Virus record (IMG/VR): IMGVR_UViG_3300027892_000017
Coordinates: 112,441-132,440 of that record
Length of the DNA stretch: 20,000 nt
From: an uncultured virus (IMG/VR IMGVR_UViG_3300027892_000017)
Taxonomy: Duplodnaviria; Heunggongvirae; Uroviricota; Caudoviricetes
Reading direction: 5' to 3' (one strand)
Numbering within the stretch: the first letter of the stretch is position 1; every line of letters begins with the position of its first letter. The notes below the pieces were generated by a model, which did no database searches, was not told the DNA's origin, and saw nothing but the letters and a program-made list of their open reading frames with translations. Positions 1-15,968 of the stretch are shown piece by piece. A program made the position numbers and the translations under genes.

Positions 1-457
1 ATGGTATTAACAATTTTTGGAACCAAGTTTGATCAATTCCTTCGTTAAATGTTTTGCGATGCATTTTAAATTTACAAGGACTATATGCATATCTTTCATG
101 ATATGTATGTCCTTTTACAAAATAGCTCAATGTATCTACTGTAAAAAAGTGAACATGTGTTGGATCAACGCAGGCCCATTTACTGCGGAAATACGGCACA
201 ATAATAGTAACAGTAGCACCTGGTTTGGTTATGCGATGAATTTCTTCCATTGTTTTAACAATGTTGTTTAAATGTTCTAATACATTGTCTAAATGTACAA
301 CATCAAACTCACCACTCTCAAACGGCCATGGAAATACATCTAAGTTGTGTACTACATCAGCACCAACATTTTCGTTAATGTCTACAGTAACAATAGTATC
401 TCCAGGATTTCCTGGACGTTCTTTCTTACCACATCCGAGTACTAGTAATTTTGCCAT
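1..457 (-). CDS. Class I SAM-dependent methyltransferase (Methyltransf_11-like); 3' end runs off the window
   Basis: Not in the ORF track; translated by hand. ATG at 457 overlaps the queE stop (TAATG). Reads MAKLLVLGCGKK...VTVDINENVGADVVHNLDVFPWPFESGEFDVVHLDNVLEHL...MEEIHRITKPGATVTIIVP...DPTHVHFF with no stop to position 1. Contains motif I (LVLGCG), WPF..FD and LEH...RI.KPG motifs. Confidence 0.85.
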   Translation of the reverse strand, partial: MAKLLVLGCGKKERPGNPGDTIVTVDINENVGADVVHNLDVFPWPFESGEFDVVHLDNVLEHLNNIVKTMEEIHRITKPGATVTIIVPYFRSKWACVDPTHVHFFTVDTLSYFVKGHTYHERYAYSPCKFKMHRKTFNEGIDQTWFQKLLIP

Positions 458-1323
458 TAGGTACCCCACTCATTTTTAAATAGTGGCACTTGTAATCTGT
501 CACTATAACGCCATCCACGTTTCATAGCAAGATCGGCCACCTTACGATTGTTTAATGCATACACACTTTCTACACCGCCAACTGGCATTAGATAAACATG
601 TCCAGTGAAACCTGCTTTACGATATTCTTCAGTAGCACGTTCTGCATCGGCAAAGTCTTGTTCTGTAGCAATAACAAATTTTAAATATGCTGTACCATAC
701 TCTTCGTACTCACATACAATCTCAGGACAGATTGCTTCTTCCCACTTCTCGCCACTACAAGGAAGTTTAGCACTTACACTAAATGTAATCTCACGCCAAA
801 AATCTTGATCATGATGACTTTTCCAAGTATGCAAATATGAAGCAAATTCTGGAGTTAATTTTTGAGTACCGTTTGTTTCAAAAGTAATTTCTCTAAGACG
901 CCACATACTAGGATGATCTAACAAATCTGGATAAGCACGTTGCCAACCTAACAACGGCTCTCCGCCTGTAATAACTAGATGCTCATCTTCCCAACGCTTG
1001 TGCGGAAGTATCTCCATAATACGATTTACAATAGCGTTACTTTCTAACATTGGACTTAGATCTTTAAACTCTGGCATCCATGATGCATAGCTGTCACAAC
1101 CTGTGCTTACAAGCGGCAAGTCTTCATACTTTTGAAAAGACTCAATCATTTTGTGTGTTGCCGCAATGTCAGTAGCTTCGTGACTGACTTCACCACGTGG
1201 CATGCCAAAGCCTGCGCATTTAAAGTTACACCCAAATGTACGCAGAAACACAGACGGGACACCCATGTAGCGTCCTTCACCTTGGATACTGTAAAACAGT
1301 TCCGCTATTTTAATTTTACTCAT
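457..1323 (-). CDS. queE: 7-carboxy-7-deazaguanine synthase QueE (radical SAM), atypical CX3CX39C motif
   Basis: ELFYSIQGEG..G.PSVFLRTFGCNFKC...GCDS, VITGGEPLL, FETNGT, SVSAKL, LKFVI, YLMP, RLQVPL motifs. Start placed at ATG 1323 (ATGA overlap with the upstream gene). Confidence 0.93.
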   Translation of the reverse strand: MSKIKIAELFYSIQGEGRYMGVPSVFLRTFGCNFKCAGFGMPRGEVSHEATDIAATHKMIESFQKYEDLPLVSTGCDSYASWMPEFKDLSPMLESNAIVNRIMEILPHKRWEDEHLVITGGEPLLGWQRAYPDLLDHPSMWRLREITFETNGTQKLTPEFASYLHTWKSHHDQDFWREITFSVSAKLPCSGEKWEEAICPEIVCEYEEYGTAYLKFVIATEQDFADAERATEEYRKAGFTGHVYLMPVGGVESVYALNNRKVADLAMKRGWRYSDRLQVPLFKNEWGT

Positions 1324-1709
1324 ACACAATCCTGTTCTTTTGCCATTTTTGTTATTATAGCACGTTCTTCTTTATTTTGTCTAGTATTACGAAACTCTTT
1401 AACGTCTGCTGATGCAGTTACAAGAGTTTGAGCATAATTAATTGTTTGTTGCTCTTTCAAACAAATAGTCGATTCGGTATCAATATACCCTTTGGTAAGT
1501 AATGTCCAAATATGTGTCCAGCGTGACTTTGACCAAAAGTTTGTTCTAGTAGTAACATAGATGTTAACAGAAATACCTGTATCATCAGACTCTACCCAGA
1601 CATTGTGATCACAATCTGTATTAGAACATTCGCAAGCAACTCGATAAACTTTTGAATCGCCCCAATCGTTTTGCTTCAAAATACCTTCTGCTGGAGTTTG
1701 GGCTTTCAT
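1320..1709 (-). CDS. Hypothetical protein with CxCx4CxH cluster (possible metal binding)
   Basis: 129-aa ORF with ATGA overlaps at both ends; contains ACECSNTDCDH. Confidence 0.75.
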   Translation of the reverse strand: MKAQTPAEGILKQNDWGDSKVYRVACECSNTDCDHNVWVESDDTGISVNIYVTTRTNFWSKSRWTHIWTLLTKGYIDTESTICLKEQQTINYAQTLVTASADVKEFRNTRQNKEERAIITKMAKEQDCV

Positions 1710-2038
1710 TGTTTGAACATCTCTAAATTAATAATTTTAGCAACACGCTCACCGACATTTTCACCAGTGGGAATAACATAAGTTTGTTGATCGTGTCGAT
1801 CCTTACGGTCATCATAATGTCGAACATTGAGAATCTTACCACCAACTGCATTGCTTAGTTCAAATGTAATGCGACCTTCGCCTTCTGCACGGCCACGTTC
1901 TACCATTGCTGTTCCCATACCAATTGCCATTTTATGTTTATCCTGTAACCATACTGTTGAATTTATTTGATCGTAGTGGTCTCTATTTTCCCACATGTCT
2001 CGAACTTTGGTATATAACCATTTATCAAACCATTTCAT
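1706..2038 (-). CDS. Hypothetical phage protein
   Basis: 110-aa ORF with ATGA overlaps to both neighbours. Confidence 0.75.
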   Translation of the reverse strand: MKWFDKWLYTKVRDMWENRDHYDQINSTVWLQDKHKMAIGMGTAMVERGRAEGEGRITFELSNAVGGKILNVRHYDDRKDRHDQQTYVIPTGENVGERVAKIINLEMFKQ

Positions 2039-2253
2039 TCTACATCTTCCTCAAACCATTCGTCAACCATTGTTTCTGCTTCGTCTTGCGTTAACGCCGG
2101 AACAAAAATACGTGCTGGATGTCCAACTGTATGTTGTATATCAAATTTAACCACACCTGCTGGTATGTGATCGAATTCTCTCTCTACAATAAATTCTTGT
2201 AAATTCTTTGCACGGAAAATTAATTGATCAGTTAAGTCTTTAGCTGTTGTCAT
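2035..2253 (-). CDS. Hypothetical phage protein
   Basis: 72-aa ORF; its ATG overlaps the folE stop (ATGA). Confidence 0.7.
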   Translation of the reverse strand: MTTAKDLTDQLIFRAKNLQEFIVEREFDHIPAGVVKFDIQHTVGHPARIFVPALTQDEAETMVDEWFEEDVE

Positions 2254-3020
2254 CTTGGGGCAAACTCCTGTTGTAATTTAATGTTATCAAAAAACTCTTT
2301 CTTAGCACCTGGATCAGTTTTAAATGAACCAGTAAGTACAGTTGTCTGTGTTAATGAACTATGTGCCATAATGCCGCGATTCTCACAGCAACCGTGTGTT
2401 GCTTGAATGTATACTGCTACGTTTTTGGAATTTGTTGCTCGGCTGATTTCCCTAGCAATGTCATTGCAAAGTTCCTCCTGGAGAGTACCTCGACGGGCAC
2501 ACCACTGAGCGATCCTTGTATACTTGCTAAGTCCGATGAGTTTCTCAGCCGCAATAATACCAATATAAGCAACGCCAGTAACGGGTTGGTGATGATGGCT
2601 ACACATACTGCGAAGCTCGCTACGAACAACCAGCATGCCTTCATAACGGTCCGCCGAATCATTTGGAAAACATGTTGCGTCTGGTGCTGATTCATATCTA
2701 CCTGCCATAATTTCGTTAAAATACATCTTAGCAAGTCTACGTGCTGTGCCTTTGCTATTAGGATCGTTTTCTCTATCAATAAGTAAACTATCAAGCACTT
2801 GCTCAAATGCAGGTGTTGCTTCGTCAATTAATTTTTCTATATCACCTTCGTGCAAGTATTCACTGATGTTATCACCTGCCCAAAAACGTTTACCTTCACG
2901 TTTCATCTTAAAACGAATATGATCGCCTAAGTATGCTTCTTTGTAATCTTTGTTGTCGTCGCCTTGTTGTTCTGCACCGGTAAGTGCGTTCTTCAAGTCT
3001 TCTGTTGTAAATGTTGTCAA
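2250..3020 (-). CDS. folE: GTP cyclohydrolase I FolE
   Basis: TARRLAKMY, SMCSHHHQP, GLSKYTRI, LQEEL, HGCCENRG motifs. TTG start with GGAG ribosome-binding site upstream. Confidence 0.95.
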   Translation of the reverse strand: MTTFTTEDLKNALTGAEQQGDDNKDYKEAYLGDHIRFKMKREGKRFWAGDNISEYLHEGDIEKLIDEATPAFEQVLDSLLIDRENDPNSKGTARRLAKMYFNEIMAGRYESAPDATCFPNDSADRYEGMLVVRSELRSMCSHHHQPVTGVAYIGIIAAEKLIGLSKYTRIAQWCARRGTLQEELCNDIAREISRATNSKNVAVYIQATHGCCENRGIMAHSSLTQTTVLTGSFKTDPGAKKEFFDNIKLQQEFAPR

Positions 3021-3043
3021 GTTAATTCTCCGATCATTTGTAC

Positions 3044-3072
3044 ATTATATAGATTATTTAGGCAAATGTCAA
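3044..3072 (-). promoter_or_regulatory. Sigma70-consensus promoter upstream of folE
   Basis: Minus strand TTGACA (3072-3067), 17-nt spacer, TATAAT (3049-3044): perfect consensus. Confidence 0.9.
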
Positions 3073-3176
3073 CTAAAGTATCCATAAGATACAACAAACC
3101 CTATACCAAACCAGAAAATTACATATTCTAACCAATATTTTTCAAGTAAATTTTCTATCTTATTTTTAAGAGTCAT
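3069..3176 (-). CDS. Small putative membrane protein (35 aa)
   Basis: Below the ORF-track cutoff: MTLKNKIENLLEKYWLEYVIFWFGIGFVVSYGYFS. Fills the gap between genes and has a hydrophobic C-terminal half. Confidence 0.55.
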   Translation of the reverse strand: MTLKNKIENLLEKYWLEYVIFWFGIGFVVSYGYFS

Positions 3177-3188
3177 ATGTTGTTTCCA

Positions 3189-3386
3189 TCAAATTATGTT
3201 GCGATCTTTTTTATAGTTTTCGTAGTGCCGCTTGCGGCATTCTTCTTTAACTGATTGCGGAATATCTGGATGCCATTCTGCCATTCCGCAATCGTAATAT
3301 CTACCTTGAGGTTGATTTTGTATAATCATATATCCAAAGATACTCAATATTGTAACGGCAAGTATGACAATGATAATATCCTTCAT
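3189..3386 (-). CDS. Small protein with N-terminal transmembrane helix
   Basis: MKDIIIVILAVTILSIFGYMII followed by a soluble part with two Cys; ATG 3386 overlaps the upstream stop (ATGA). Confidence 0.7.
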   Translation of the reverse strand: MKDIIIVILAVTILSIFGYMIIQNQPQGRYYDCGMAEWHPDIPQSVKEECRKRHYENYKKDRNII

Positions 3387-3592
3387 AGTCGTTCGCTCAA
3401 AAGTATACGACATAAATCAGCATCTTTTTTATTTTTAAATGTAAAGGTCATGCAATCTTCTTCAGGATGAGATTCGTATCTGTTTCCAGGCAATCCAAAT
3501 ACTTCTAGTACTAGAGCACATGTTTCATTCCACCAAAAACCATTTTGGTTGTCCCATAATACTGCTACTTGATTCTCATTTGTCGCTAACAC
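3383..3592 (-). CDS. Hypothetical phage protein
   Basis: ORF-track frame 3383..3652. Likely start is GTG 3592, preceded by AAGGA; start position uncertain. Confidence 0.65.
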   Translation of the reverse strand: MLATNENQVAVLWDNQNGFWWNETCALVLEVFGLPGNRYESHPEEDCMTFTFKNKKDADLCRILLSERL

Positions 3593-3956
3593 GATAGTTT
3601 CCTTTTTCTGGAATAACATGTCTAACACCTCCACGTGGATCTTCCATATCACCCTTGCGTCTAGGAATCATATGTACATGTGGATACATTATTGTTTGTC
3701 CAGCAGCCTCGCCACAGTTTTGTCCGACATTAAAAGCGTCCCACCTGCCCGACTCGACGCCCATGTAACCAAATTTGTATGCGGCTTTGTAACAATCCCA
3801 GAGATGGTCCCAGTCTTCTTTGGTAGGCACAAATAACAGATGTCCTTCCGTAACTGGGTATGCATCTCGGAAGACCCAATAGTCTTTAGTTCGGTATTCA
3901 ATACCGGTCCACGGTGCTCGTTTTTCATCAAGTGCCCTTTCAATATCAGTTGTCAT
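3576..3956 (-). CDS. HIT-family nucleotide hydrolase
   Basis: D.YPVTEGHLLFVP, FNVGQNCGEAAGQTIMYPHVHMIPRR; the first His of the HxHxH triad is replaced by Tyr. Confidence 0.9.
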   Translation of the reverse strand: MTTDIERALDEKRAPWTGIEYRTKDYWVFRDAYPVTEGHLLFVPTKEDWDHLWDCYKAAYKFGYMGVESGRWDAFNVGQNCGEAAGQTIMYPHVHMIPRRKGDMEDPRGGVRHVIPEKGNYRVSDK

Positions 3957-4497
3957 TGCGCCAAAACTCTTCCCAAGGATAAACTAACCAACAGTCCTCT
4001 TCTGCTTTGTTGACTTCCCAAACAGAGTAGTCAACAGTTTCTTTACTTGCCATATTGTTAGTTAGTGTAGCAAATCGAACATTGCCTCCCCACACGTGAT
4101 TCCAAAAATCGTGATCGGGATGACAGCCACTTGGCCAGTCTTGTTTGATCCAGGCAATAGTGCTACCTTGATCATTAATGTCGTCTACAATAAGAATTTT
4201 TTTTCTGTAAGCCGGATCAACAAACGTGCCAGTGGATTCTCGTATTTCACTAGGGACACAACCAAATGCATCTTCAGCCATGCCTAAGTCGCTTACACAA
4301 TCTCCACCATCACGTAAACTTACTTGTAATGGACGCATGGGAATTCCCATATATTGACTAAGCAGTACTGCTGGCACAGCACCGCCACGTGTGATACCTA
4401 CAATATAATCTGGACGCCAGTTGTCTTGCTGTAGCTGTCTAGCAATATCTAAACAAGCACCTTCAATTTGACTCCAGCTATAGTAAACCTTTTTCAT
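3946..4497 (-). CDS. Type I phosphoribosyltransferase (Gpt/HPRT-like purine PRTase)
   Basis: PDYIVGITRGG, PRPP-binding loop ILIVDDINDQGST, C-terminal WLVYPWE as in Gpt-like enzymes. Confidence 0.88.
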   Translation of the reverse strand: MKKVYYSWSQIEGACLDIARQLQQDNWRPDYIVGITRGGAVPAVLLSQYMGIPMRPLQVSLRDGGDCVSDLGMAEDAFGCVPSEIRESTGTFVDPAYRKKILIVDDINDQGSTIAWIKQDWPSGCHPDHDFWNHVWGGNVRFATLTNNMASKETVDYSVWEVNKAEEDCWLVYPWEEFWRNDN

Positions 4498-4505
4498 TAA
4501 GTGCC

Positions 4506-4733
4506 TTACTGTAAATTACGATTATCATCTTCTTCTGAACGCATAATTGCTTCAACAATGTCTTCATCTAAATCTTCTATATCTACCTCATGGGAGTTTT
4601 CTTCAAGTTCTCCACTTTTGAACATACGATGAATTTCAGAAACAAGTTCGTCAAGTTCTTCTTGTGTGCCATCAAAATTATCAAAGCAGCCTGGTGCAAA
4701 TTCGATTTTAGTTGCTTTTGGTTTATCAGTCAT
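4506..4733 (-). CDS. Small acidic hypothetical protein
   Basis: MTDKPKATKIEF...EELDELVSEI...EVDIEDLDEDIVEAIMRSEEDD; start at ATG 4733, with a GG-containing purine run (AAAGGCG) just upstream. Confidence 0.72.
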   Translation of the reverse strand: MTDKPKATKIEFAPGCFDNFDGTQEELDELVSEIHRMFKSGELEENSHEVDIEDLDEDIVEAIMRSEEDDNRNLQ

Positions 4734-5094
4734 GATCGCCTTTAATTGATTCAAATGTTCTATACTTACCCAATGCATTTATGTATTCGTCATACATCTT
4801 TTTTAGTTTTGGATATTTCTTTTCAAGTATAACATCTCTTTCGGGAATTTGCAAGACTTTTTCAATTGTGTTTAACCGTTCTTCCAAGTCACGGCCGTTA
4901 ATAACCATTCGACCTTTAACTTCTAATTCTGGCGGAGTTTGTTTAACAATCATAACATTGTCATTTGGATTAGTCCACGTTGTACCGTTAGACCCACTTG
5001 TTAAAAACTGTCCTGATGTATTGGTAGTTGTATAAACGTAGCCACCACTAGTAGTATTAGCTATGTTGTTTGCGTTCTTCAAGATATAGCTCAT
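4726..5094 (-). CDS. Hypothetical protein, T/S/N-rich N-terminus and C-terminal YPxLK helix
   Basis: ORF-track frame 4726..5118; ATG 5094 preferred (uncertain). Confidence 0.7.
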   Translation of the reverse strand: MSYILKNANNIANTTSGGYVYTTTNTSGQFLTSGSNGTTWTNPNDNVMIVKQTPPELEVKGRMVINGRDLEERLNTIEKVLQIPERDVILEKKYPKLKKMYDEYINALGKYRTFESIKGDHD

Positions 5095-5512
5095 TATGTA
5101 TCCATTTATTTTTAACAAGGAATCCCCATTCTTGTTTTTGTGGACCTGGCATGAACAATGTCCACGCAGTTACGTTAGGATCAAGCTCAATACGATGATA
5201 GCTGTTAGCACTACATATACGAAAATGTCCTGGACCTCGCCATTTACACATTTCACCTGACATATTACCTTGCTCGTCAAATAACGGAATCCATTCATAG
5301 TATCCGCCTTTTAAAATCAGTGTAGCATAAGGCCACGGATGATCATGTACATCGCCAGGATCTGACTGATGAAACTTGTGTAAAAATATGTTAAACGGAA
5401 ACCAGTTACGATCCTTTAGGAACAAATAGTAACGTGTGATAAGTGGAGCACCGTTTTGGCGATCCATAATAATACGTTTACGTCCAATGTGTTCTAAAAA
5501 TTTAAGAAGCAT
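5057..5512 (-). CDS. Cupin-fold metal-binding protein
   Basis: LHKFHQSD...HDHPW..TLILKGGYYE and YHRIEL...AWTLF: two-part cupin His motif. Start at ATG 5512. Confidence 0.8.
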   Translation of the reverse strand: MLLKFLEHIGRKRIIMDRQNGAPLITRYYLFLKDRNWFPFNIFLHKFHQSDPGDVHDHPWPYATLILKGGYYEWIPLFDEQGNMSGEMCKWRGPGHFRICSANSYHRIELDPNVTAWTLFMPGPQKQEWGFLVKNKWIHNELYLEERKQHS

Positions 5513-5867
5513 ATTTATTGCCTTTCTTTGCTTCCCAATCGTCCTCAATCATTGCATAAGTTTGTTTGAATTTTTCAAATGCAATTTTTAAAGCAGGATA
5601 TTCCTTACACATTTTTTCAACTTCTGAGTAGCTAGGGAAACTATCAACCCATTCAATTGGTAAATTAAAACTCCAATTATCTGATCCACCAATAGTAATA
5701 GTATCTAAAGGAGAGATTGTACTAATACTTCCGCTTGCAAGTGTATAACTTCCAGCAAACACGGAAGTGTCTATAGTTACAGTATTGGCACTTGTTATTG
5801 ACGACAAGTCAATTGTGTCACTGTTTAATGTTATTGAGTAAGTCTCTGGCGCTAAAGAACTGTTCAT
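5502..5867 (-). CDS. Hypothetical protein, T/S-rich N-terminus and C-terminal YPxLK helix
   Basis: 121-aa ORF overlapping both neighbours. Confidence 0.7.
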   Translation of the reverse strand: MNSSLAPETYSITLNSDTIDLSSITSANTVTIDTSVFAGSYTLASGSISTISPLDTITIGGSDNWSFNLPIEWVDSFPSYSEVEKMCKEYPALKIAFEKFKQTYAMIEDDWEAKKGNKYAS

Positions 5868-6891
5868 TTAAGATATCCTTTTGTTTTCTAATTTGTGGAA
5901 TCCTAGTTCTGTAATTATCCATATGCTGTATAATTTCTTTACACAAATTAGGACGATATACATTATATGCGTCCCAGCTTTCGGTCCACTTACTTGGATA
6001 CTTAAATGTGTCCAAGTACATTTCTTTGTAACTTAGTCTGTCAGGAACCATTGGAATTGCATCTACAACAGTGCCTTCATAACAACTAATGCCTAATGTT
6101 TCTTGCAAATTAGCACTAAACACTAGTTTTGCCTCACCCAATAAATTATGATATTCATTTTTAGTCAGTTGTTGATCTTGACATACGACAAATTCATATT
6201 GTGGTAAGTGTTCTTTTAAATCTCTAAAAATATTAACTTGTTTTTCTGGAGCAATACGATGTGGGAATAAGATAAGATCACGCTTGGGCATGTTCTTATA
6301 CATTGTTAACGTATCTTCCATATACTCCATGGGCCATCCTGTGCGTATAATTTTACTTTGATTAGTATAATAGTTTGGTGGAGTAAGAGTATCATGGAAC
6401 AAGTTTTCAGTAAACATGTTAATATGAAACTCTGTAGCAAAGTAGTTATAATCAAATGAATGGAAGAAACTTTTCTCAGCATGTCTAACCCAAGGTTTAG
6501 CACCAACCAAGCGTCCAAGAAAGTCTTGTGGATCATATGATCCAGCATGCCATAAGCCGTGTGTAGTTACCGGAATACCTAGCAACTCACTCATGTACTT
6601 TAAGTTTATGATACCAGGATGCCAAGCATCAGTAAAGATAAAGTGATCGCCGGAATGAACGGCTCCGTTACAAAATAAACGACCCATCTGCTCAACTTGA
6701 CTAGCCTTGTATATATTAGTCCCGCCAAAGTTAAGAAACGCTCCTGGAGTGGTAGCACTAGGTATGTCCATAGGACCAGAGATAATTTGAACATTGTGTC
6801 CTGCCTTTTTAAGTAGTTTGGGTACACTAGTTTTCCATTGACCAGTGTACCGTGTGTCAACTGCTTCAAGGTCGACTAAAAAGACTTTCAT
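5818..6891 (-). CDS. GT-B fold glycosyltransferase (GT4-like)
   Basis: 357 aa; FPHRIAPEKQ donor-binding motif, EX7E signature ETLGISCYE, and WHAGSYD in the N-terminal domain. Confidence 0.85.
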   Translation of the reverse strand: MKVFLVDLEAVDTRYTGQWKTSVPKLLKKAGHNVQIISGPMDIPSATTPGAFLNFGGTNIYKASQVEQMGRLFCNGAVHSGDHFIFTDAWHPGIINLKYMSELLGIPVTTHGLWHAGSYDPQDFLGRLVGAKPWVRHAEKSFFHSFDYNYFATEFHINMFTENLFHDTLTPPNYYTNQSKIIRTGWPMEYMEDTLTMYKNMPKRDLILFPHRIAPEKQVNIFRDLKEHLPQYEFVVCQDQQLTKNEYHNLLGEAKLVFSANLQETLGISCYEGTVVDAIPMVPDRLSYKEMYLDTFKYPSKWTESWDAYNVYRPNLCKEIIQHMDNYRTRIPQIRKQKDILNEQFFSARDLLNNIKQ

Positions 6892-7130
6892 CAGTCTTTG
6901 AACCTTGGTTTGCTGTTAAAATTTGGATTATGTGGACGAGGATTCTTGCCCAAATAAGGTTTACGTTCACCGTTCCATGCCTTCTTAGGTCGACGGCTGT
7001 ACTCAAAATCTCGCCAATTTTGACTTTCCCTATTATAAAGGTCGGCTGGGTTATAGTTACGCAACTCAAAGCGACAAAAGTCGAGATAGTTGTCCAGGTC
7101 ATCAAAAATCTTAACGACTTCGTTTTTCAT
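6891..7130 (-). CDS. Hypothetical protein with basic, Pro/Asn-rich tail
   Basis: MKNEVVKIFDDLDNYLDFCRF...; ATG 7130 with AAGGA upstream; its stop overlaps the GT start (TGATG). Confidence 0.72.
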   Translation of the reverse strand: MKNEVVKIFDDLDNYLDFCRFELRNYNPADLYNRESQNWRDFEYSRRPKKAWNGERKPYLGKNPRPHNPNFNSKPRFKD

Positions 7131-7149
7131 AGGAGTATTTCCTTTAATT

Positions 7150-7545
7150 TTAGTACTTAATAAATGAACCATTTTCTCCGTCTTCGGAGACCTCAATCCA
7201 AACCTCACGGCCTGGATACTTATTGGAAATAGTGTCGTACAATTCGTCCGACATCATTTCGCAACTCTTATGATCTAGCGACAAAACACCTTGTGCGCTA
7301 GAATACAGTTGTTCAAGCCATCGCTTGAATTGTATGAATTCCACATCTCTGTCATTGTGGGTGACACTAAGCCATACCCTAAAATGGAAAATATGACGAT
7401 GAGGATTAGCAAGAAACGATACATCATATTGATCTCCTGTTGCTAGGTTAGGGTCTGTTGCGGCCGCAGGATAGCAATGGATGCCTTCCTTTTGAAATGT
7501 GACCCAAATCATTTTAAGCGGCCGTATATCTTGTTTAAGAATCAT
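7150..7545 (-). CDS. QueD-like T-fold protein with LxxxHRHxF motif (DpdL-like)
   Basis: EGIHCYP...FLANPHRHIFHF, DRDVEFI, SCEMMS, IEVSEDGENG: PTPS/QueD layout but lacking the canonical CxxxHGH. Start at ATG 7545 (ATGA overlap). Confidence 0.8.
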   Translation of the reverse strand: MILKQDIRPLKMIWVTFQKEGIHCYPAAATDPNLATGDQYDVSFLANPHRHIFHFRVWLSVTHNDRDVEFIQFKRWLEQLYSSAQGVLSLDHKSCEMMSDELYDTISNKYPGREVWIEVSEDGENGSFIKY

Positions 7546-8078
7546 AGTGTTGTATCTTGTGTGTACTGATCCCAATGAGTGTACTTGTCTTTACTCATCA
7601 AGCTCTGTAAGTGATGTGTCCACACACCTGGATTTGTAGCACCCCAAGTTCGGTCGTCCAGTTTAAGTGTGGCATTATAGTTGAGTTGATTAATGTAAGG
7701 TAACTTGACACTAATCATGGGAACAAATCGAGGATATTCGTTATATGCTGATTCCAATACACCTTCAATGTGTTCAACACCAAAGTCTAAAGTAACCCAA
7801 TAGTCTGCTTTTAAACAGCCAATAATAACTTCATCCCATGCTTTATATTCTTCGTGGCTAATACTTTTAGGATTAAAACTTTGACTAGTGCCAAAGTAAA
7901 TATGTTTAATACGTTTGCTTTCGTCCAAGTATGCTTGTGTATCCCCTGCCTTACGAAGTATGTCTTCTAAAGGAGGTGTGCCTACAACAAACAAAGTGAA
8001 CATGCCATGACAAACAGTATGCTCTACTTCGTAGCCTGTAAAATATGTGACGTCTTGTCTTTGTTGTGTATCTAACAT
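7542..8078 (-). CDS. Hypothetical protein, possibly a degenerate QueE-fold paralogue without the Fe-S motif
   Basis: 178-aa ORF (solid). Five short colinear matches to the QueE in this window, seen by eye (see findings). Confidence 0.6.
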   Translation of the reverse strand: MLDTQQRQDVTYFTGYEVEHTVCHGMFTLFVVGTPPLEDILRKAGDTQAYLDESKRIKHIYFGTSQSFNPKSISHEEYKAWDEVIIGCLKADYWVTLDFGVEHIEGVLESAYNEYPRFVPMISVKLPYINQLNYNATLKLDDRTWGATNPGVWTHHLQSLMSKDKYTHWDQYTQDTTL

Positions 8079-8084
8079 GTTGTA

Positions 8085-8113
8085 AGTATATAATAATTAA
8101 TATATAAAGTCAA
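8085..8113 (-). promoter_or_regulatory. Sigma70-type promoter, probably giving a leaderless transcript
   Basis: TTGACT (8113-8108), 17 nt, TATACT (8090-8085); only 6 nt separate the -10 from ATG 8078; no Shine-Dalgarno. Confidence 0.78.
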
Positions 8114-8121
8114 ATCCAATT

Positions 8122-9015
8122 TTACCAAAGTAAGTAGCCTCTGCTTTGATTGGCTTTTCGATTAATACTTTCTTCAAATGCTTGTTCCCACTGTGATACT
8201 CTAGGATATGCGTTTGACCAAAATCTATCAACAATTATGTCACCGTTTTCAATCCAAGTAGCCGCATCTTGCATACATTTATAAAAACCTTCAGTTCTTG
8301 GACTAGGGAACATAATAGTACATGCTTTCCAAAGTAAATTACCAAAATCAGTGTTTACTTGCTTTTGATTTCCAAACACAATTAACGCTTCGTTGTTTAC
8401 GATTGGTTGATCAAATACATCTGGGCCTGAACCCAAATCAATAATAACGTCAAAGGTTCCAGTGTATTCTTCAGAAAGCAGTTCTCCCCACTGACGTTTA
8501 TTGCTTTTACCTTTTACTGTGATTTCAAAATCTAAATGATTTAGTTTAATTGTATGATACGCAACCCAAGCAAGGAAGCCACTGCCTATAATCAGCAATC
8601 TCTTACCTGGCCCACTTCGTTCTGCAATTTCTCTAATGGGTTGATGAATAATATTAATCCCGCATGCTACTGGTTCTAGTATGTATTTAGGATCAGCTTC
8701 GGGTACCTTAACATATTCTCTAGCACGTACATTATATACATCCGCATACGCAGGCTCGCCACGTGTTGCCACAAGGTCTCCTACTTTAACATCAGTTACT
8801 TTATTACCAATTTCAATAATTTGACCCAATCCTTCGTGACCATGCATATTTGATGGCAATAACGCAAACTTTCCTTGCATCATATCAATGTCACTTCTAC
8901 AAATACCAGTCATAACCGCTGCTACTTGGATTTCTGTTTCTCCAGGAGGCTGTACATCGTACTTTGCTTCAAAGAAAGCACCTTTACCGTCTGTTTGTAA
9001 TGTATCTACTATCAT
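8122..9015 (-). CDS. Zn-dependent medium-chain dehydrogenase (MDR family)
   Basis: GICRSD, GHEGLG, VKVGD, LEPVAC, Rossmann IIGSGFLA; lacks the structural-Zn four-Cys lobe. Confidence 0.88.
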   Translation of the reverse strand: MIVDTLQTDGKGAFFEAKYDVQPPGETEIQVAAVMTGICRSDIDMMQGKFALLPSNMHGHEGLGQIIEIGNKVTDVKVGDLVATRGEPAYADVYNVRAREYVKVPEADPKYILEPVACGINIIHQPIREIAERSGPGKRLLIIGSGFLAWVAYHTIKLNHLDFEITVKGKSNKRQWGELLSEEYTGTFDVIIDLGSGPDVFDQPIVNNEALIVFGNQKQVNTDFGNLLWKACTIMFPSPRTEGFYKCMQDAATWIENGDIIVDRFWSNAYPRVSQWEQAFEESINRKANQSRGYLLW

Positions 9016-9896
9016 AAATCTTCTATCCTTTCATGTATCCAAAAGTCTTGTTGTAATTGTTCTTGCCAAAAATTGTTGTTAGTTAGGTTTTCAATAGTAT
9101 CAACAATCATATTATGATATGCTTCTTCTGGGCACCAACCTAGTTCAAAACGTTCTACGCTACCATCTTCCATTGTAAATTTAATAGAGCTATCGTCTTC
9201 ATGCATATTAGCCCAATCTGCTAGTAAAGTCCATTTATTACCAAATAACAGATGGCAACGATCATCCACATCGTATGTCCCATTAGGATTTATAGTTCCA
9301 TATTCAGTACTTTTAATATTTTCCAGATTATGACATTGTAGTGAGTGTCTTCCAGTTTGTTGTTCTTTTAGCCAGTTTGGATTCATAGCAACATAAAGAC
9401 TTAGTAAGTGTGGCATTAGATCTCTACTAACTCCGCCAAACGCTAATTTTTTAGTAGTAAACCAGCTGCCTGGATTGGGAATACAATTTTTCCTACTCCA
9501 AAATATGTCTACAGTCTTTGCTTTAGCGGCTAATTCCTTTAATTCACTTATATTACTACGCCACATGTTATTTTTAACCATCATGAAGCGTGTATTGCTA
9601 AATGTTTGAACCAATGTAGCCCAGTTTTCTGATCGAGCAACACCAGGTTTTTCAACAAATACAATTTTACTTACAGGTGCAACTCGGGTTGCAATGTCAA
9701 AATGTGTAAAGTTAGGTGTACAAATATGTACAGTATCAAACGGAGCATACAATAGTATAGCAGAATCAATACTGGGTAACATTGCACCTTTTGTAATATC
9801 CTGATCCACAGTAATAACTTCGTGGCCAAGTTTGTCTAGCACAGATTTGTACAAGTTTCCAATACCCATACCAATGACTAGACTACGCTTGCTCAT
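9012..9896 (-). CDS. Gfo/Idh/MocA-family NAD(P)-dependent oxidoreductase
   Basis: LVIGMGIG, VHICTPNFTH, VFVEKP, GGVSRDLMPH motifs. Confidence 0.88.
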   Translation of the reverse strand: MSKRSLVIGMGIGNLYKSVLDKLGHEVITVDQDITKGAMLPSIDSAILLYAPFDTVHICTPNFTHFDIATRVAPVSKIVFVEKPGVARSENWATLVQTFSNTRFMMVKNNMWRSNISELKELAAKAKTVDIFWSRKNCIPNPGSWFTTKKLAFGGVSRDLMPHLLSLYVAMNPNWLKEQQTGRHSLQCHNLENIKSTEYGTINPNGTYDVDDRCHLLFGNKWTLLADWANMHEDDSSIKFTMEDGSVERFELGWCPEEAYHNMIVDTIENLTNNNFWQEQLQQDFWIHERIEDL

Positions 9897-10128
9897 TTTT
9901 CTTTTCCTCGTAGGATTTAAACATTCGAGTTACCTCTTCCATGCGTTTGGCAAACACATGCGGGCTTGCTTCTGCGGCCTGCTCCATATCCCAGTCGCTA
10001 GGATAATGACGCAAACAACTTCTAGCGCCGTCTTTAATTGCTTTTGGAACTCGAGGAGTAGTTAGAATCTCAAGTAAAAACTTTTGAGTCTGCAATACTG
10101 CTCGATATCTTTCATCAGGTAGCGTCAT
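9883..10128 (-). CDS. Small conserved hypothetical protein (resembles the BPSL0761 family)
   Basis: MTLPDERYRAVLQT..FL...VP..I...AR..LRHYP pattern, recognised from memory. Confidence 0.65.
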   Translation of the reverse strand: MTLPDERYRAVLQTQKFLLEILTTPRVPKAIKDGARSCLRHYPSDWDMEQAAEASPHVFAKRMEEVTRMFKSYEEKKNEQA

Positions 10129-11692
10129 CTTCTTTCTCGATTTCAGTTTCTAGTTCATCAAGTTTGTTAATTTCATCTTCACTAAATTCATCGCTATGTT
10201 CAACAACTGGTTGTGCAACAACTGGAGCAGTTTCTACAACCTCAAACAAGTTTTCAAAATTTGTATGAGCATTGATAGCTTTCTTACCACTTGCGCCACG
10301 TGTACCAATAACACGATTCCAAAAGAATCTAAATTCATCGATAACTTTTAACGCAGTACCTTTGTCGCTTGTAGCAAACAATGCTTCAACAATGTCTTTA
10401 AAGAATATCTGATCAAAACGTTCGTCAACTAACATATTAGGGCAACGACCAGCATCATATTGTCTGTTGGCTTCTTGAACAGCGTTCAAATGCATCCAAA
10501 CATTATGACCCATCATAATGCCATAACTAAAACTATCCCACGATGTTTTATTAACTTGTCCAAACTTGTTAGTATCGCCTGGGCCGTAAATGCAAATTTC
10601 ATTGAGTTTAATCTGATCAATAATGGGACTAGATTCAAATACTTTTAAAATGCCATCTTGAATAACTGCGTCTTTATACAAACGTGTATCGTTAGCATAC
10701 TTCTTGTCATCAGCACTTGATGTCATTCTGTATGTCCATTTTTTACGATCTTCTGTTTCTGTTTGAATATAAATCTGTCCGTTAGCAGTTGCTAAGAACG
10801 GGCTTGCACAGTCAAAGCTGATACTAAAGTTTTCGTTATGATGTTTGCGAACAACACGTTGAATATCTGTAAGTAATACTGCCCATTCTAATTTACTTGT
10901 ACCTAAAAAGTGCATCCAATCTTGATGACCTTTTTCTAACAATCCATCAAAACGTAATTCAACTAATCGTCTTAGTACAAGCTCGACATCACACATGTTC
11001 TGGCCACCCATACCCCAGCCATTAAATGCACGATCACCGTATTGCTTTGGATCACAATACTTTTTCATGCGATCATACCAGTCATCTGCTTGACCGTGAT
11101 TCTCGCCTTGTAATACGTTTAAGAACTTGCAATTGCCGTTTCGATTATTAACAAAGTAATCATTATTAATATATGTGCCATTAACTGCATCAGCATAACT
11201 GCTAATGCCGATTAGTTTAGGACTTTCTGGATTTTTAGCAGTCCAACTTGGAATATCAAGACACATACCATAGTCCATTAAGGTATCCATCCAAGCTAAA
11301 ACTTGTTTACGCTTTTTCATTGCACGTGGACAGTTGGGATCTTTCCAATCACCAGTCCATTTGCCTTTACCAATTTGGAAACCACCAGAGTCACCTAACA
11401 CCCAAGATGTATTGCGATCTCTGTTACGGAACATATCCTCTTTTGGATCAAACTTATTCAAGTCTAAGTTAGCATGTCCAGCACTATACAAGCACCAGTG
11501 ATAATAAAATGCACCCTTGTCTGGATCCAAATAGTTGAGACTCTCCGCACCGTGTGCAAATGATGGCGGAATACGAGTGGGGTCTACATAATTAAAATGA
11601 CGTTGTTTACCAACAAACGTCGAATAAAATGTCGACGTTGCTGGCAAAAACTTTGCGTAATCGCTTTGTGTAGCCGTTAAGTTTGTATTCAT
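10115..11692 (-). CDS. dpdA: TGT-superfamily guanine transglycosylase, probably DNA-acting (phage DpdA/DpdA2-like)
   Basis: GDSGGFQ, LDIP, VLQG, GWGMGG, HFLG, SFDCASP and GHN appear in TGT order. No CxCxxC zinc motif. Adjacent to replication and preQ-pathway genes. DNA rather than tRNA substrate is inferred from context. Confidence 0.82.
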   Translation of the reverse strand: MNTNLTATQSDYAKFLPATSTFYSTFVGKQRHFNYVDPTRIPPSFAHGAESLNYLDPDKGAFYYHWCLYSAGHANLDLNKFDPKEDMFRNRDRNTSWVLGDSGGFQIGKGKWTGDWKDPNCPRAMKKRKQVLAWMDTLMDYGMCLDIPSWTAKNPESPKLIGISSYADAVNGTYINNDYFVNNRNGNCKFLNVLQGENHGQADDWYDRMKKYCDPKQYGDRAFNGWGMGGQNMCDVELVLRRLVELRFDGLLEKGHQDWMHFLGTSKLEWAVLLTDIQRVVRKHHNENFSISFDCASPFLATANGQIYIQTETEDRKKWTYRMTSSADDKKYANDTRLYKDAVIQDGILKVFESSPIIDQIKLNEICIYGPGDTNKFGQVNKTSWDSFSYGIMMGHNVWMHLNAVQEANRQYDAGRCPNMLVDERFDQIFFKDIVEALFATSDKGTALKVIDEFRFFWNRVIGTRGASGKKAINAHTNFENLFEVVETAPVVAQPVVEHSDEFSEDEINKLDELETEIEKEDDAT

Positions 11693-12423
11693 TACTTAGA
11701 TTGAGCTGGAAGAATATAGTTGTATTCTGTAATACCACTATCAACTGTAATTTGCATAGCGCCTTGATCACTAATGCGTACTGTGCTCTTACCATCTAAG
11801 TTAAGAATACTAATAACAGCGTTAATTGGCCATGACCATGTGTGTTTCAATTTACCAACAACATTTGGTTGGAATACAAAGTTACCAGCGTGTGTACTTG
11901 CATCACCAAAACTTACAACTAAATTGCCATTGTCTGTTTTGACTTGGAACACGTTTTCTTCTGTATGTGCAGCCGCTTGCAATTTCAAACGACTGATTGA
12001 GCTCAGTGAAGGTTCAAATTCAATGTCCCAACCGTTGCCTTTGTACTTGACGCTTTTTAACTTTTCGTTAATAACTTCAGTACTCATAAATCTATAATCG
12101 TTAACAAAGTCGCCAGTTGCATTTTCAAAGTGCAAACTTGTTGGAATATCTACGCCGTTGCGTTGACTAGTAACAACATTAATCTTTGCGTTTTCTTTAT
12201 ATTCTGGATTCTTCAAGTGTAGTGCTAATTTGTCTAAGTTAGGCATACCAAATACGCCTGCAAATTCAGTAACTACCTTGTGTGTTTTAGCATTAACAAT
12301 AACGCTACGGTCTTCTGCCATTGATTCAATAGTTGTTTCTCCGTTCTCACCAGAAACTTTAACTGTTGGCAAAAAGCCTAGGCTATGTGTATGTGCTACG
12401 ATGTCTTGTAAAATGTTTTTCAT
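11692..12423 (-). CDS. Putative DNA polymerase sliding clamp (gp45/PCNA-like)
   Basis: 243 aa; two-domain beta/alpha pattern ending in a YNYILPA strand; close to polB. GGAGA RBS before ATG 12423. Fold assignment is by pattern only. Confidence 0.62.
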   Translation of the reverse strand: MKNILQDIVAHTHSLGFLPTVKVSGENGETTIESMAEDRSVIVNAKTHKVVTEFAGVFGMPNLDKLALHLKNPEYKENAKINVVTSQRNGVDIPTSLHFENATGDFVNDYRFMSTEVINEKLKSVKYKGNGWDIEFEPSLSSISRLKLQAAAHTEENVFQVKTDNGNLVVSFGDASTHAGNFVFQPNVVGKLKHTWSWPINAVISILNLDGKSTVRISDQGAMQITVDSGITEYNYILPAQSK

Positions 12424-12441
12424 ATGGGTCTCCAAGTTTGT

Positions 12442-12470
12442 ATTTTAACTGATATTGACGCTTGTGTCAA
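12442..12470 (-). promoter_or_regulatory. Sigma70-type promoter for the clamp-dpdA operon
   Basis: TTGACA (12470-12465), 17 nt, TAAAAT (12447-12442); overlaps the end of the upstream gene. Confidence 0.82.
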
Positions 12471-13239
12471 CACCTTTTTTTACTTTTTTGTTGTACTCTA
12501 TTACCGTTTCCAATAAATCAAATTTTTGATCTAATGAATTAATGTAATGAATAAACGCCGATGTATCTTTTGGAAAGCAATGCCCTCCCCAACCTCTTTC
12601 ACCATCAGGTCCGGGAACCATGCTGTGACTTGTGCCAATTCGGTTATCTTGGCAAATTAAGTGTCTAACAATATCAAAGTCATGTCCACTTGCCTCACAT
12701 ATATCATATATGTGATTAAAGAACGATACTTTCATTGCTAAAAAACTATTTGTTGCGTATTTGATAATTGCAGCTTCTTCAATTGAACACTTGTGTACTA
12801 CTAACAAGTTTGGCATTGCTCCCCTAAAAGCACAGTGCCAAAAATCCAACGGATCATCACCGCCAATAATCATATACTTTTGCTTGGCAAAATCTTCAAT
12901 TGCTGACTTTGCTCTTAAAAACTCTGGACTATACGCAATGCTATGTTCAGAATATTTTTCTGTAATAGCTTTAAGTTTGTCTGGACTTACTGTGCTTTTA
13001 ATTAAGATTGGCATATGAACTGGTGTTTGACTAATAACGTCTAACACGTTGCTGATATCACAATCCCCATTATCGTCACTAGGGGTATTAACACAGATAA
13101 TAATTCCAGCGGCATCATAATGATCTGAAATTTTAACTTCAGTGAGTGCTGGATCAACTACTTCAGTTTCATAAGTGTATTTTAAAGCAGCCTTAACTGC
13201 CTTACCTACAAATCCGTAACCTGCAATAATAAATTTCAT
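12445..13239 (-). CDS. UDP-glucose/GDP-mannose dehydrogenase family protein lacking the C-terminal domain
   Basis: GYGFVG, ICVNTP, IKSTV, SPEFLR, KYATNSFLAMKVSFFN, catalytic GGHCFPKD; only 264 aa. Confidence 0.9.
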   Translation of the reverse strand: MKFIIAGYGFVGKAVKAALKYTYETEVVDPALTEVKISDHYDAAGIIICVNTPSDDNGDCDISNVLDVISQTPVHMPILIKSTVSPDKLKAITEKYSEHSIAYSPEFLRAKSAIEDFAKQKYMIIGGDDPLDFWHCAFRGAMPNLLVVHKCSIEEAAIIKYATNSFLAMKVSFFNHIYDICEASGHDFDIVRHLICQDNRIGTSHSMVPGPDGERGWGGHCFPKDTSAFIHYINSLDQKFDLLETVIEYNKKVKKGVDTSVNIS

Positions 13240-15907: not shown

Positions 15908-15918
15908 ATCTCTCCTTA

Positions 15919-15968
15919 TGTCATTTGCGGCTGACAAACACCCATGTTGCGGTTTATGGCCCGCCGAC
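15919..15968 (-). promoter_or_regulatory. Tandem stem-loops in the polymerase 5' leader (putative translational operator)
   Basis: mRNA sense: GCGG-GCCAUAAA-CCGC, then UGUCA-GCCGCAAA-UGACA immediately before the AAGGAG RBS. Confidence 0.6.

Follow-up and report, generated by a model that had tools for sequence, protein, structure and literature searches.

A predicted glycosyltransferase accompanies a DpdA3/DpdL-type 7-deazaguanine DNA-modification cluster in an uncultured virus contig

Which base does a phage place in its DNA when genes for 7-deazaguanine synthesis stand among genes for sugar-handling enzymes? This question is raised by a gene cluster in the uncultured virus record IMGVR_UViG_3300027892_000017 (IMG/VR; Caudoviricetes). 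We analyzed positions 112,441 to 132,440 of that record, a stretch of 20,000 nucleotides that we call the window and to which positions refer unless stated otherwise; it forms the terminal 20 kb of one contig of 132,440 bp. A preliminary description had proposed that the genes in 1-13239 produce a glycosylated deazapurine. Our results favor a DpdA3/DpdL-type system for placing 7-deazaguanine in DNA, to which a dedicated glycosyltransferase (GT) has been added, and we give this reading a probability of about 0.5. What is new here is the constant GT together with an optional dehydrogenase module beside a known DpdA3/DpdL core.

The core genes, FolE, QueE, DpdL and DpdA3 (Table 1), support the earlier view of a system for 7-deazaguanine modification of DNA that ends ahead of the QueC step. 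FolE also matched the NCBIfam FolE models (E 4e-39, under their cut-offs), and the QueE-like protein gave partial matches to the NCBIfam QueE equivalogs at 38-52 bits against cut-offs of 200-300. Cui, Hutinet et al. (2023, PMC10516641) define DpdL, a proposed 7-carboxy-7-deazaguanine (CDG) decarboxylase, by an LxxxHRHxF motif that stands where QueD has CxxxHGH. Because the open reading frame (ORF) at 7150-7575 carries the former motif instead of the latter, it is DpdL and not the QueD-like protein first described, with a putative CDG decarboxylase activity assigned from sequence. Its LANPHRHIF segment is the sole LxxxHRHxF motif on the contig, and the protein is 56% identical to DpdL of phage ACP17, 50% to that of Pseudomonas jumbo phage PA5oct, and 32% to CGPG_00067 of Cellulophaga phage phiST. 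DpdL points to 7-deazaguanine (DG) as the product, so the pathway probably does not branch at CDG itself, as had been supposed. The decarboxylase activity is a proposal from the same paper, where heterologous expression failed and ACP17 dpdL and dpdA2 alone yielded no 2'-deoxy-7-deazaguanosine (dDG) in Escherichia coli, the authors suggesting that other enzymes may be needed; according to its supplement, 6-carboxytetrahydropterin (CPH4), CDG and DG all fit the DpdL pocket (PMC10516641).

Searches of the rest of the record for the remaining pathway genes gave a mixed outcome. No true QueD was detected on the contig by the CxxxHGH motif, by tblastn with ACP17 QueD or by PF01242, and in two related contigs a true QueD is encoded tens of kilobases from the cluster. 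QueC, QueF and ArcS, reported as not visible in the window, were found neither there nor anywhere on the 132-kb contig; because the record is 38% complete, this absence holds for the contig rather than for the phage. Since FolE, QueE, DpdL and DpdA3 are present and the contig has no QueC, the core is of a known, already described kind, and its predicted product is dDG. As a separate observation, Xanthomonas phage X1 encodes a PAPS-reductase-family PP-loop ATPase (6197-6730 of the stretch compared) inside its FolE-GT-DpdA-DpdL-QueE cluster.

The transglycosylase ORF encodes a DpdA3-type protein with the fold of tRNA-guanine transglycosylases (TGTs), predicted from its modelled structure and motifs to exchange guanine in DNA. 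Its AlphaFold model reached a predicted local distance difference test score (pLDDT) of 90.1 and a predicted template modelling score (pTM) of 0.90, and all 50 Foldseek matches listed were TGTs, at E values of about 1e-7 to 1e-6. Alignment of the model to TGTs with VIA-align gave Z scores of 16.6-18.1 over ~300 residues, at a root-mean-square deviation of 4.1-5.2. Two aspartates, D101 of the DSGGFQ motif and D294 of FDC, do not vary among 58 diverse relatives (26-80% identity), and their motifs align with DSGGLQ and SYDS of the ACP17 and X1 DpdA proteins; we take them to be equivalent to D102 and D280 of Zymomonas mobilis TGT. Bacterial TGT carries a zinc-binding CxCxxC...H subdomain, and a motif search of the window protein and the 58 relatives found CxCxxC in none of them. 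The original assignment to the TGT family thus stands on the fold and the two Asp motifs, not on database families: there were no significant matches in Pfam, NCBIfam or PDB sequences, even with a 58-sequence profile, and Pfam TGT (PF01702) matched 2/58 relatives (best E 0.043) and not the window protein. The closest named relative is QCG76197.1 of PA5oct (32% identity over 98% of the length), which is entered as DpdA3, with its neighbor as DpdL, in supplement DS1 of PMC10516641. We had considered an unclassified DpdA clade for this family and dropped the idea, the PA5oct member having already been called DpdA3 in that supplement. The family profile matched the ACP17 and X1 DpdA proteins (DpdA2 type) at ~96% probability and the short phiST DpdA3 (CGPG_00065) at 85.6% over 82 columns.

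The ORF at 5818-6891 encodes a GT-B glycosyltransferase, as predicted from its modelled fold, and to this extent the earlier call is retained. The model is of moderate confidence (pLDDT 74.3, pTM 0.72). The PDB matches listed by Foldseek were all GT-B proteins, with E values down to 7.7e-9 and template modelling (TM) scores of about 0.6; they include glycogen synthase, BshA, MshA, PimB' and PglA (E 1e-8 to 1e-6), and by fold the protein is nearest to GT4/GT5-type enzymes. Among viral models in BFVD the matches were likewise glycosyltransferases, the best being the ACP17 GT (E 1e-25, TM about 0.8). GT4-like GT-B enzymes carry an E-x7-E motif in their C-terminal domain, and the corresponding pair, E264 and E272, is invariant in 33 relatives. 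When these 33 members were compared with Pfam, Glyco_transf_61 was matched by 22 (best E 0.019), Glyco_transf_4 by three (best E 0.021) and Glycos_transf_1 by one (E 0.23). Searches of PDB sequences with the transglycosylase, the GT, DpdL and the conserved protein o178, both as single sequences and as profiles, returned nothing significant.

To place the GT in its genomic setting, we compared 80 related viral loci (transglycosylase identity 63-100%) and mapped all window proteins onto them. The complete set comprised the 34 loci spanning the transglycosylase to QueE, so that QueE is present in 34/34 by construction. The GT, DpdL, o178, o105 and o247 were found in every one of these 34 and FolE in 33. 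Lower counts were obtained for o121 (28/34), o130 (27/34), a phosphoribosyltransferase (PRTase, 26/34), a cupin (24/34), a HIT-family protein and a BPSL0761-family protein (22/34 each), and a gene resembling UDP-glucose dehydrogenase (UGDH), present in 20/34 at two alternative positions. The Gfo/Idh/MocA (Gfo) and medium-chain (MDR) dehydrogenases occurred in 15/34, always paired, and form a conserved but optional module, and the methyltransferase occurred in 3/34. The GT was also present in 46/46 related loci that have at least 4.5 kb of downstream flank. The linkage of sugar enzymes to this system, as first described, therefore holds for the GT, whereas Gfo plus MDR, the UGDH-like gene and the methyltransferase are accessory.

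In cultured phages, the GT directly adjoins DpdA in PA5oct (DpdA3, GT, DpdL, then PRTase and QueE), ACP17 (an o178-like gene, DpdA2, GT, DpdL, QueE) and X1 (GT, DpdA, DpdL, QueE), and it adjoins DpdL in Phosso (DpdL, GT, FolE); BUDD and BCSR5 carry both the GT and DpdL genes. DpdL was present in 17/17 cultured-phage records with a full-length GT homolog, and 12/29 DpdL records had no GT match, among them five Cellulophaga records and RHph_I1_18, in which a macro-domain gene follows DpdL. Five partial GT matches (65% coverage, 27% identity) came from Xanthomonas and Erwinia phages that have no DpdL. Since the GT accompanies DpdL together with DpdA2 (ACP17, BUDD) or DpdA3 (PA5oct, the window), it tracks DpdL whichever the DpdA type, as would be predicted for a GT that acts on the product of DpdL. 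On the related matter of whether the sugar genes occur independently of dpdA in relatives, we found no indication of this for the GT, Gfo and MDR, with full-length Gfo and MDR homologs confined to 11 PA5oct-like records among cultured phages, whereas the UGDH-like gene is widespread outside such systems.

Two cultured phages offer the closest comparisons. The phiST DpdA3/DpdL system resembles the window in having FolE, QueE, a DpdL with the LxxxHRHxF motif and a divergent TGT-fold DpdA, in having no QueC, and in adjoining a DNA polymerase. It differs in that homologs of the GT, Gfo, MDR and o178 are absent, its DpdA3 has 259 aa as opposed to 525 aa, and its DNA contains plain dDG, as reported also for phi19:2 and phi13:1 (PMC10516641). 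PA5oct (Wroclawvirus) shares with the window the order DsbA, DNA polymerase, o247, DpdA3, GT, DpdL, then PRTase and QueE, and it also has a contiguous Gfo-MDR-o178 trio, though 26 kb from the DpdA3 cluster. Protein identities between the two are 32-50%, and homologs of the UGDH-like, cupin and HIT proteins were not found in the two PA5oct stretches examined. Several G-containing restriction sites in PA5oct DNA resist cutting and a modified G is suspected, the chemical nature of which we did not find published in the literature searched. We also note that EST35_0320 (15416-15934 of the stretch compared; 172 aa), located between DpdL and the PRTase in PA5oct, aligns with the NAD-dependent epimerase/dehydratase family over the N-terminal part only (E 6e-7) and offers a second hint that sugar-nucleotide chemistry belongs to a DpdL system with a GT.

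We propose a pathway in which FolE would convert GTP to dihydroneopterin triphosphate (H2NTP), a QueD (not found on this contig but encoded away from the cluster in related ones) would make CPH4, QueE would form CDG, and DpdL would convert CDG to 7-deazaguanine, as proposed in the literature. The TGT-fold DpdA3 would exchange guanine in phage DNA for the deazapurine, and the GT4-like GT-B enzyme would add a sugar from a host nucleoside diphosphate (NDP)-sugar, acting on the base once it is in DNA or on the free base beforehand. The Gpt-like PRTase may return released guanine to GMP and so feed the FolE step, and Gfo-MDR(-o178), the truncated UGDH-like protein, the cupin and the methyltransferase may be optional tailoring enzymes that vary between relatives. 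We infer each of these chemical steps, the DNA target and the sugar from the enzyme families, folds, conservation and linkage described above, and the sugar would presumably end up on the DNA base. A more specific form of the proposal, that guanine is replaced by a glycosylated 7-deazaguanine, e.g., at N2 or as a pyrrole-ring C-glycoside, with the optional genes varying the sugar between strains, falls somewhat short of an even chance. Only tentatively do we extend the glycosylated-7-deazaguanine interpretation to a very abundant freshwater jumbo-phage lineage together with PA5oct, ACP17, X1/BUDD, Phosso and BCSR5.

Several observations weigh against a dedicated, DNA-directed GT. The GT model is moderate (pLDDT 74), with a low-confidence stretch (261-266) that touches the E-x7-E motif, and Pfam support is weak, the window ORF itself giving no significant match. 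The structural neighbors of the GT are small-molecule or polymer glycosyltransferases, and the T4 DNA glucosyltransferases were not among the 50 listed matches. 7-Deazaguanine presents no obvious hydroxyl for O-glycosylation, no NDP-sugar-forming enzyme was identified, and the dehydrogenases are optional. The GT is also unnecessary for the base itself, because phiST, with DpdL and DpdA3 but no GT homolog, makes plain dDG. The 80 loci are close relatives, and PA5oct and Phosso have a polymerase of the shared lineage (about 50% identity), so that the independent lineages number about six rather than dozens. One relative's contig encodes a marginal QueC-like PP-loop protein (1054-1692 of the stretch compared; 24.7 bits against a cut-off of 150), and since PP-loop ATPases could activate the CDG carboxylate, the absence of a QueC-like step is uncertain for these systems. 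Finally, the contig is ~38% complete according to CheckV, leaving the other 62% of the genome unseen.

As an alternative, the modification could be plain dDG (or the corresponding CDG nucleoside, dCDG), with the GT and dehydrogenases serving another process, such as glycosylation of a protein of the virion or of a glycan on the host surface, or with an inert GT, and with the conserved replication module accounting for the position of the genes. The 100% dDG of phiST agrees with this, as do the solved structures nearest to the GT, none of which is a DNA enzyme, the distance between Gfo/MDR and the DpdA3 cluster in PA5oct, and the UGDH-like gene, which is common in unrelated phages and lies beside glycosyltransferases in Microbacterium phages. 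However, a GT of unrelated function would not be expected to coincide with DpdL in all 17 cultured records that have it at full length, to remain adjacent to DpdA or DpdL through rearrangements and with either of two DpdA subfamilies, or to keep E264 and E272 invariant, and we regard this alternative as unlikely. Far less probable is entry at the nucleotide level or a tRNA target, where the PRTase would turn CDG or DG into a nucleotide which, after reduction and phosphorylation, the phage polymerase would incorporate, and the TGT-fold protein would act on tRNA. PRTases do act on CDG or preQ0 in the tubercidin and toyocamycin pathways, the TGT fold is primarily a tRNA-enzyme fold, the PRTase is found in 26/34 loci and in the PA5oct cluster, and the contig encodes a dNMP kinase and a NUDIX protein. 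Yet the PRTase is missing from 8/34 loci, its best model, a xanthine-guanine PRTase, fits guanine salvage equally well, the 132-kb contig has no tRNA genes, and all deazaguanine phages are said to insert the base after replication via DpdA (PMC10516641). Equally improbable is a pterin glycoside made apart from DNA modification, in which FolE, DpdL as a member of the 6-pyruvoyltetrahydropterin synthase (PTPS) family, MDR and Gfo would yield a tetrahydropterin glycosylated by the GT as by cyanobacterial BGluT: FolE and a PTPS-family protein are common to both routes, the top structural neighbors of the GT act on small molecules and a tetrahydrobiopterin glucosyltransferase (9v0l) is among its Foldseek matches, but at rank 44 (E 2.8e-6) it is no better than generic GT4 matches, MDR and Gfo are missing from 19/34 loci that keep the GT, QueE and DpdA3, each in 34/34, are left unexplained, and the DpdL pocket is described as fitting CDG and DG as well (PMC10516641).

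For the preferred reading, a 7-deazaguanine system with a dedicated GT, there are glycosyltransferase precedents on 7-deazaguanine derivatives in RNA or as the free base, none in DNA. Eukaryotic tRNA contains glycosylated queuosine (galQ/manQ), with the sugar on the cyclopentenediol, and dapiramicin and huimycin are N2-glycosylated 7-deazapurine natural products, with the sugar on N2 of the free base. The alpha- and beta-glucosyltransferases of T-even phages, also GT-B enzymes, glucosylate 5-hydroxymethylcytosine from a host NDP-sugar as a counter-defence; unlike in the window, the base is a pyrimidine with a hydroxyl handle. Sugar decoration is known on modified pyrimidines of phage DNA, and we know of no purine example. 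If the GT does act on deazaguanine, this would be the first case in DNA of a purine analogue that bears a sugar. In line with the preliminary description, we found no characterised modification of this kind in the literature searched, and no description of glycosylated deazaguanine in DNA in full-text literature outside subscription-only papers. In the text and supplement of PMC10516641, "glycosyl" occurs only within a description of chemical synthesis, and a 2026 review still speaks only of "predicted" deazaguanine incorporation (PMC13282480). Such a modification would add a layer to the phage DNA modifications that face host defences (restriction enzymes, type IV enzymes, DNA glycosylases and END nucleases), and GT action could account for the failure of ACP17 dpdL and dpdA alone to yield a product in E. 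coli. The question is directly testable, as the DpdL-GT pair occurs in no fewer than five cultured phage lineages.

The system appears to be widespread. Counting protein clusters at 90% identity that pass E <= 0.001, which gives lower bounds, we obtained at least 7,874 for the transglycosylase and at least 8,000 for the GT; at the 50% cluster level the transglycosylase had 938 representatives. Near-identical DNA occurred in 20 runs belonging to 16 studies, the majority with a freshwater label (lake or river). A megablast search of 50,697 phage records with the cluster as query gave no matches.

Table 1. Genes of the cluster and the adjoining polymerase gene, in window coordinates.
Feature	Length (aa)	Position	Strand	Evidence
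Class I S-adenosylmethionine (SAM) methyltransferase (accessory)		2..469, cut by window start	-	PF13489 + PF08241
QueE-like radical SAM protein (putative CDG synthase)	290	457..1329	-	phrog_2076 "QueE-like" E 1.9e-49, full length
GTP cyclohydrolase I FolE	256	2250..3020	-	PF01227 E 7.4e-40
HIT-family protein	126	3576..3956	-	PF01230 E 2.3e-8
PRTase (Gpt-like N-terminus)	183	3946..4497	-	PF00156 E 4.5e-12
Cupin (PHROG "cysteine dioxygenase" family)	163	5057..5548	-	phrog_4786 E 4.4e-35; Pfam none
GT-B (GT4-like) glycosyltransferase, predicted	357	5818..6891	-	predicted fold; E264-x7-E272
o105, small conserved protein, encoded between the DpdL and GT genes		6891..7208	-	no family match
DpdL (QueD paralog, proposed CDG decarboxylase)	141	7150..7575	-	LANPHRHIF; phrog_17812 E 7.6e-33
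o178, conserved protein	178	7542..8078	-	no family match
MDR zinc-type dehydrogenase (accessory)	297	8122..9015	-	ADH_N E 9e-12; GICRSD, HGHE, GSGFLA motifs
Gfo/Idh/MocA oxidoreductase (accessory)	294	9012..9896	-	PF01408 27.7 bits vs cut-off 24; EKP at residue 82
BPSL0761-family small protein	81	9883..10128, between transglycosylase and Gfo	-	NF041728 E 7e-19, above cut-off
DpdA3-type DNA guanine transglycosylase (TGT fold), predicted	525	10115..11692	-	fold; DSGGFQ and FDC motifs; PA5oct homolog
o247, probable sliding clamp (replication context)		11692..12435	-	phrog_12062 E 1e-33
Truncated UDP-glucose/GDP-mannose dehydrogenase-like protein (accessory)	264	12445..13239	-	PF00984 E 1.1e-24, PF03721 E 3.6e-11
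Family B DNA polymerase		13241..15937	-	PF00136 + PF03104; phrog_262 E 1e-198; cluster flanked by polymerase in all lineages

Among the accessory genes, the one first described as an NDP-sugar dehydrogenase has the NAD-binding and central domains and the catalytic-Cys motif GGHCFPKD (residue 218, aligned with GGSCFPKD of 3gg2), but not the C-terminal domain, which in UGDH is the UDP-binding domain. Its alignment covers residues 79-301 of 3gg2, a chain of 450 aa, and the protein stops at 264 aa, before the C-terminal domain, for which no match was obtained. Truncation is the rule among the distinct relatives extracted, 35/36 of which have 256-268 aa and one an ORF of 514 aa. Because its homologs are spread over 103 phage records, including 56 from Microbacterium and 15 from Campylobacter phages and most unrelated to the system discussed here, this gene is not specific to it. 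The 15 Campylobacter phage records carry homologs of the truncated protein, and Campylobacter phages have been described with DpdA3 and DNA modified with 7-amido-7-deazaguanine (ADG) (PMC10516641). The PRTase, the HIT protein, o178 and o105 did not figure in the preliminary description. The PRTase also matched the xanthine PRT model PRK09177 (E 3.5e-12, under its cut-off). A regular-expression search of the HIT protein did not find the H-x-H-x-[H/Q/M] triad, and its PHVHMIP segment has two histidines. The methyltransferase gene, which the window truncates, encodes 186 aa in full at genome positions 112349-112909.

The conserved protein o178 is a candidate for a missing component of DpdL-type systems. 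It had no matches in Pfam or with a profile against PDB sequences, and the protein atlas gave none that were usable. Homologs lie directly after Gfo-MDR in PA5oct (38% identity) and directly before DpdA2 in ACP17 (30%). A 177-aa "glycosylase" of Phosso and CGPG_00066 of phiST were compared as possible relatives and rejected.

As first described, the genes of the cluster, including FolE, QueE, the GT, dehydrogenases, cupin and methyltransferase, lie on one strand, the minus strand holding all long ORFs of 1-13239, and many are coupled by overlapping start and stop codons. With longest-ORF starts, 19/24 junctions overlap, four of them by 4 bases and two by 1 base; some of the longer overlaps are probably artefacts of over-long start choices. 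The cluster lies downstream of the family B DNA polymerase, which is closest to jumbo-phage enzymes (Phosso, 49%; Atu_ph07, 47%), and of a DsbA-like regulator. The o247 homolog in Phosso (32% identity) is labelled a sliding clamp by its depositors, and that in PA5oct a "structural protein".

The contig has no terminal repeat, and one of its ends falls inside an ORF. Outside the window it encodes T4-like structural proteins (gp23, gp20, terminase, sheath) and ThyX, in addition to the dNMP kinase and NUDIX protein mentioned above; no protein there matched Pfam TGT. Just upstream of the window, genome positions 95686-103857 (plus strand) hold eight consecutive genes, six of them radical-SAM, followed by ThyX; two of the six proteins are full-length "twitch-domain" types (NF033640, E 1e-123 and 1e-114). 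A link of this run to the deazaguanine cluster was considered and dropped, as it lies on the opposite strand and contains no deazaguanine-specific family. On the minus strand at genome positions 29021-36151, three large paralogs (716, 800 and 701 aa) combine an N-terminal CBM5/12 module with RCC1-like beta-propeller repeats and may be receptor-binding or fibre proteins. A single ORF of 4,437 aa occupies genome positions 70513-83826 (plus strand), amid baseplate and tail genes.

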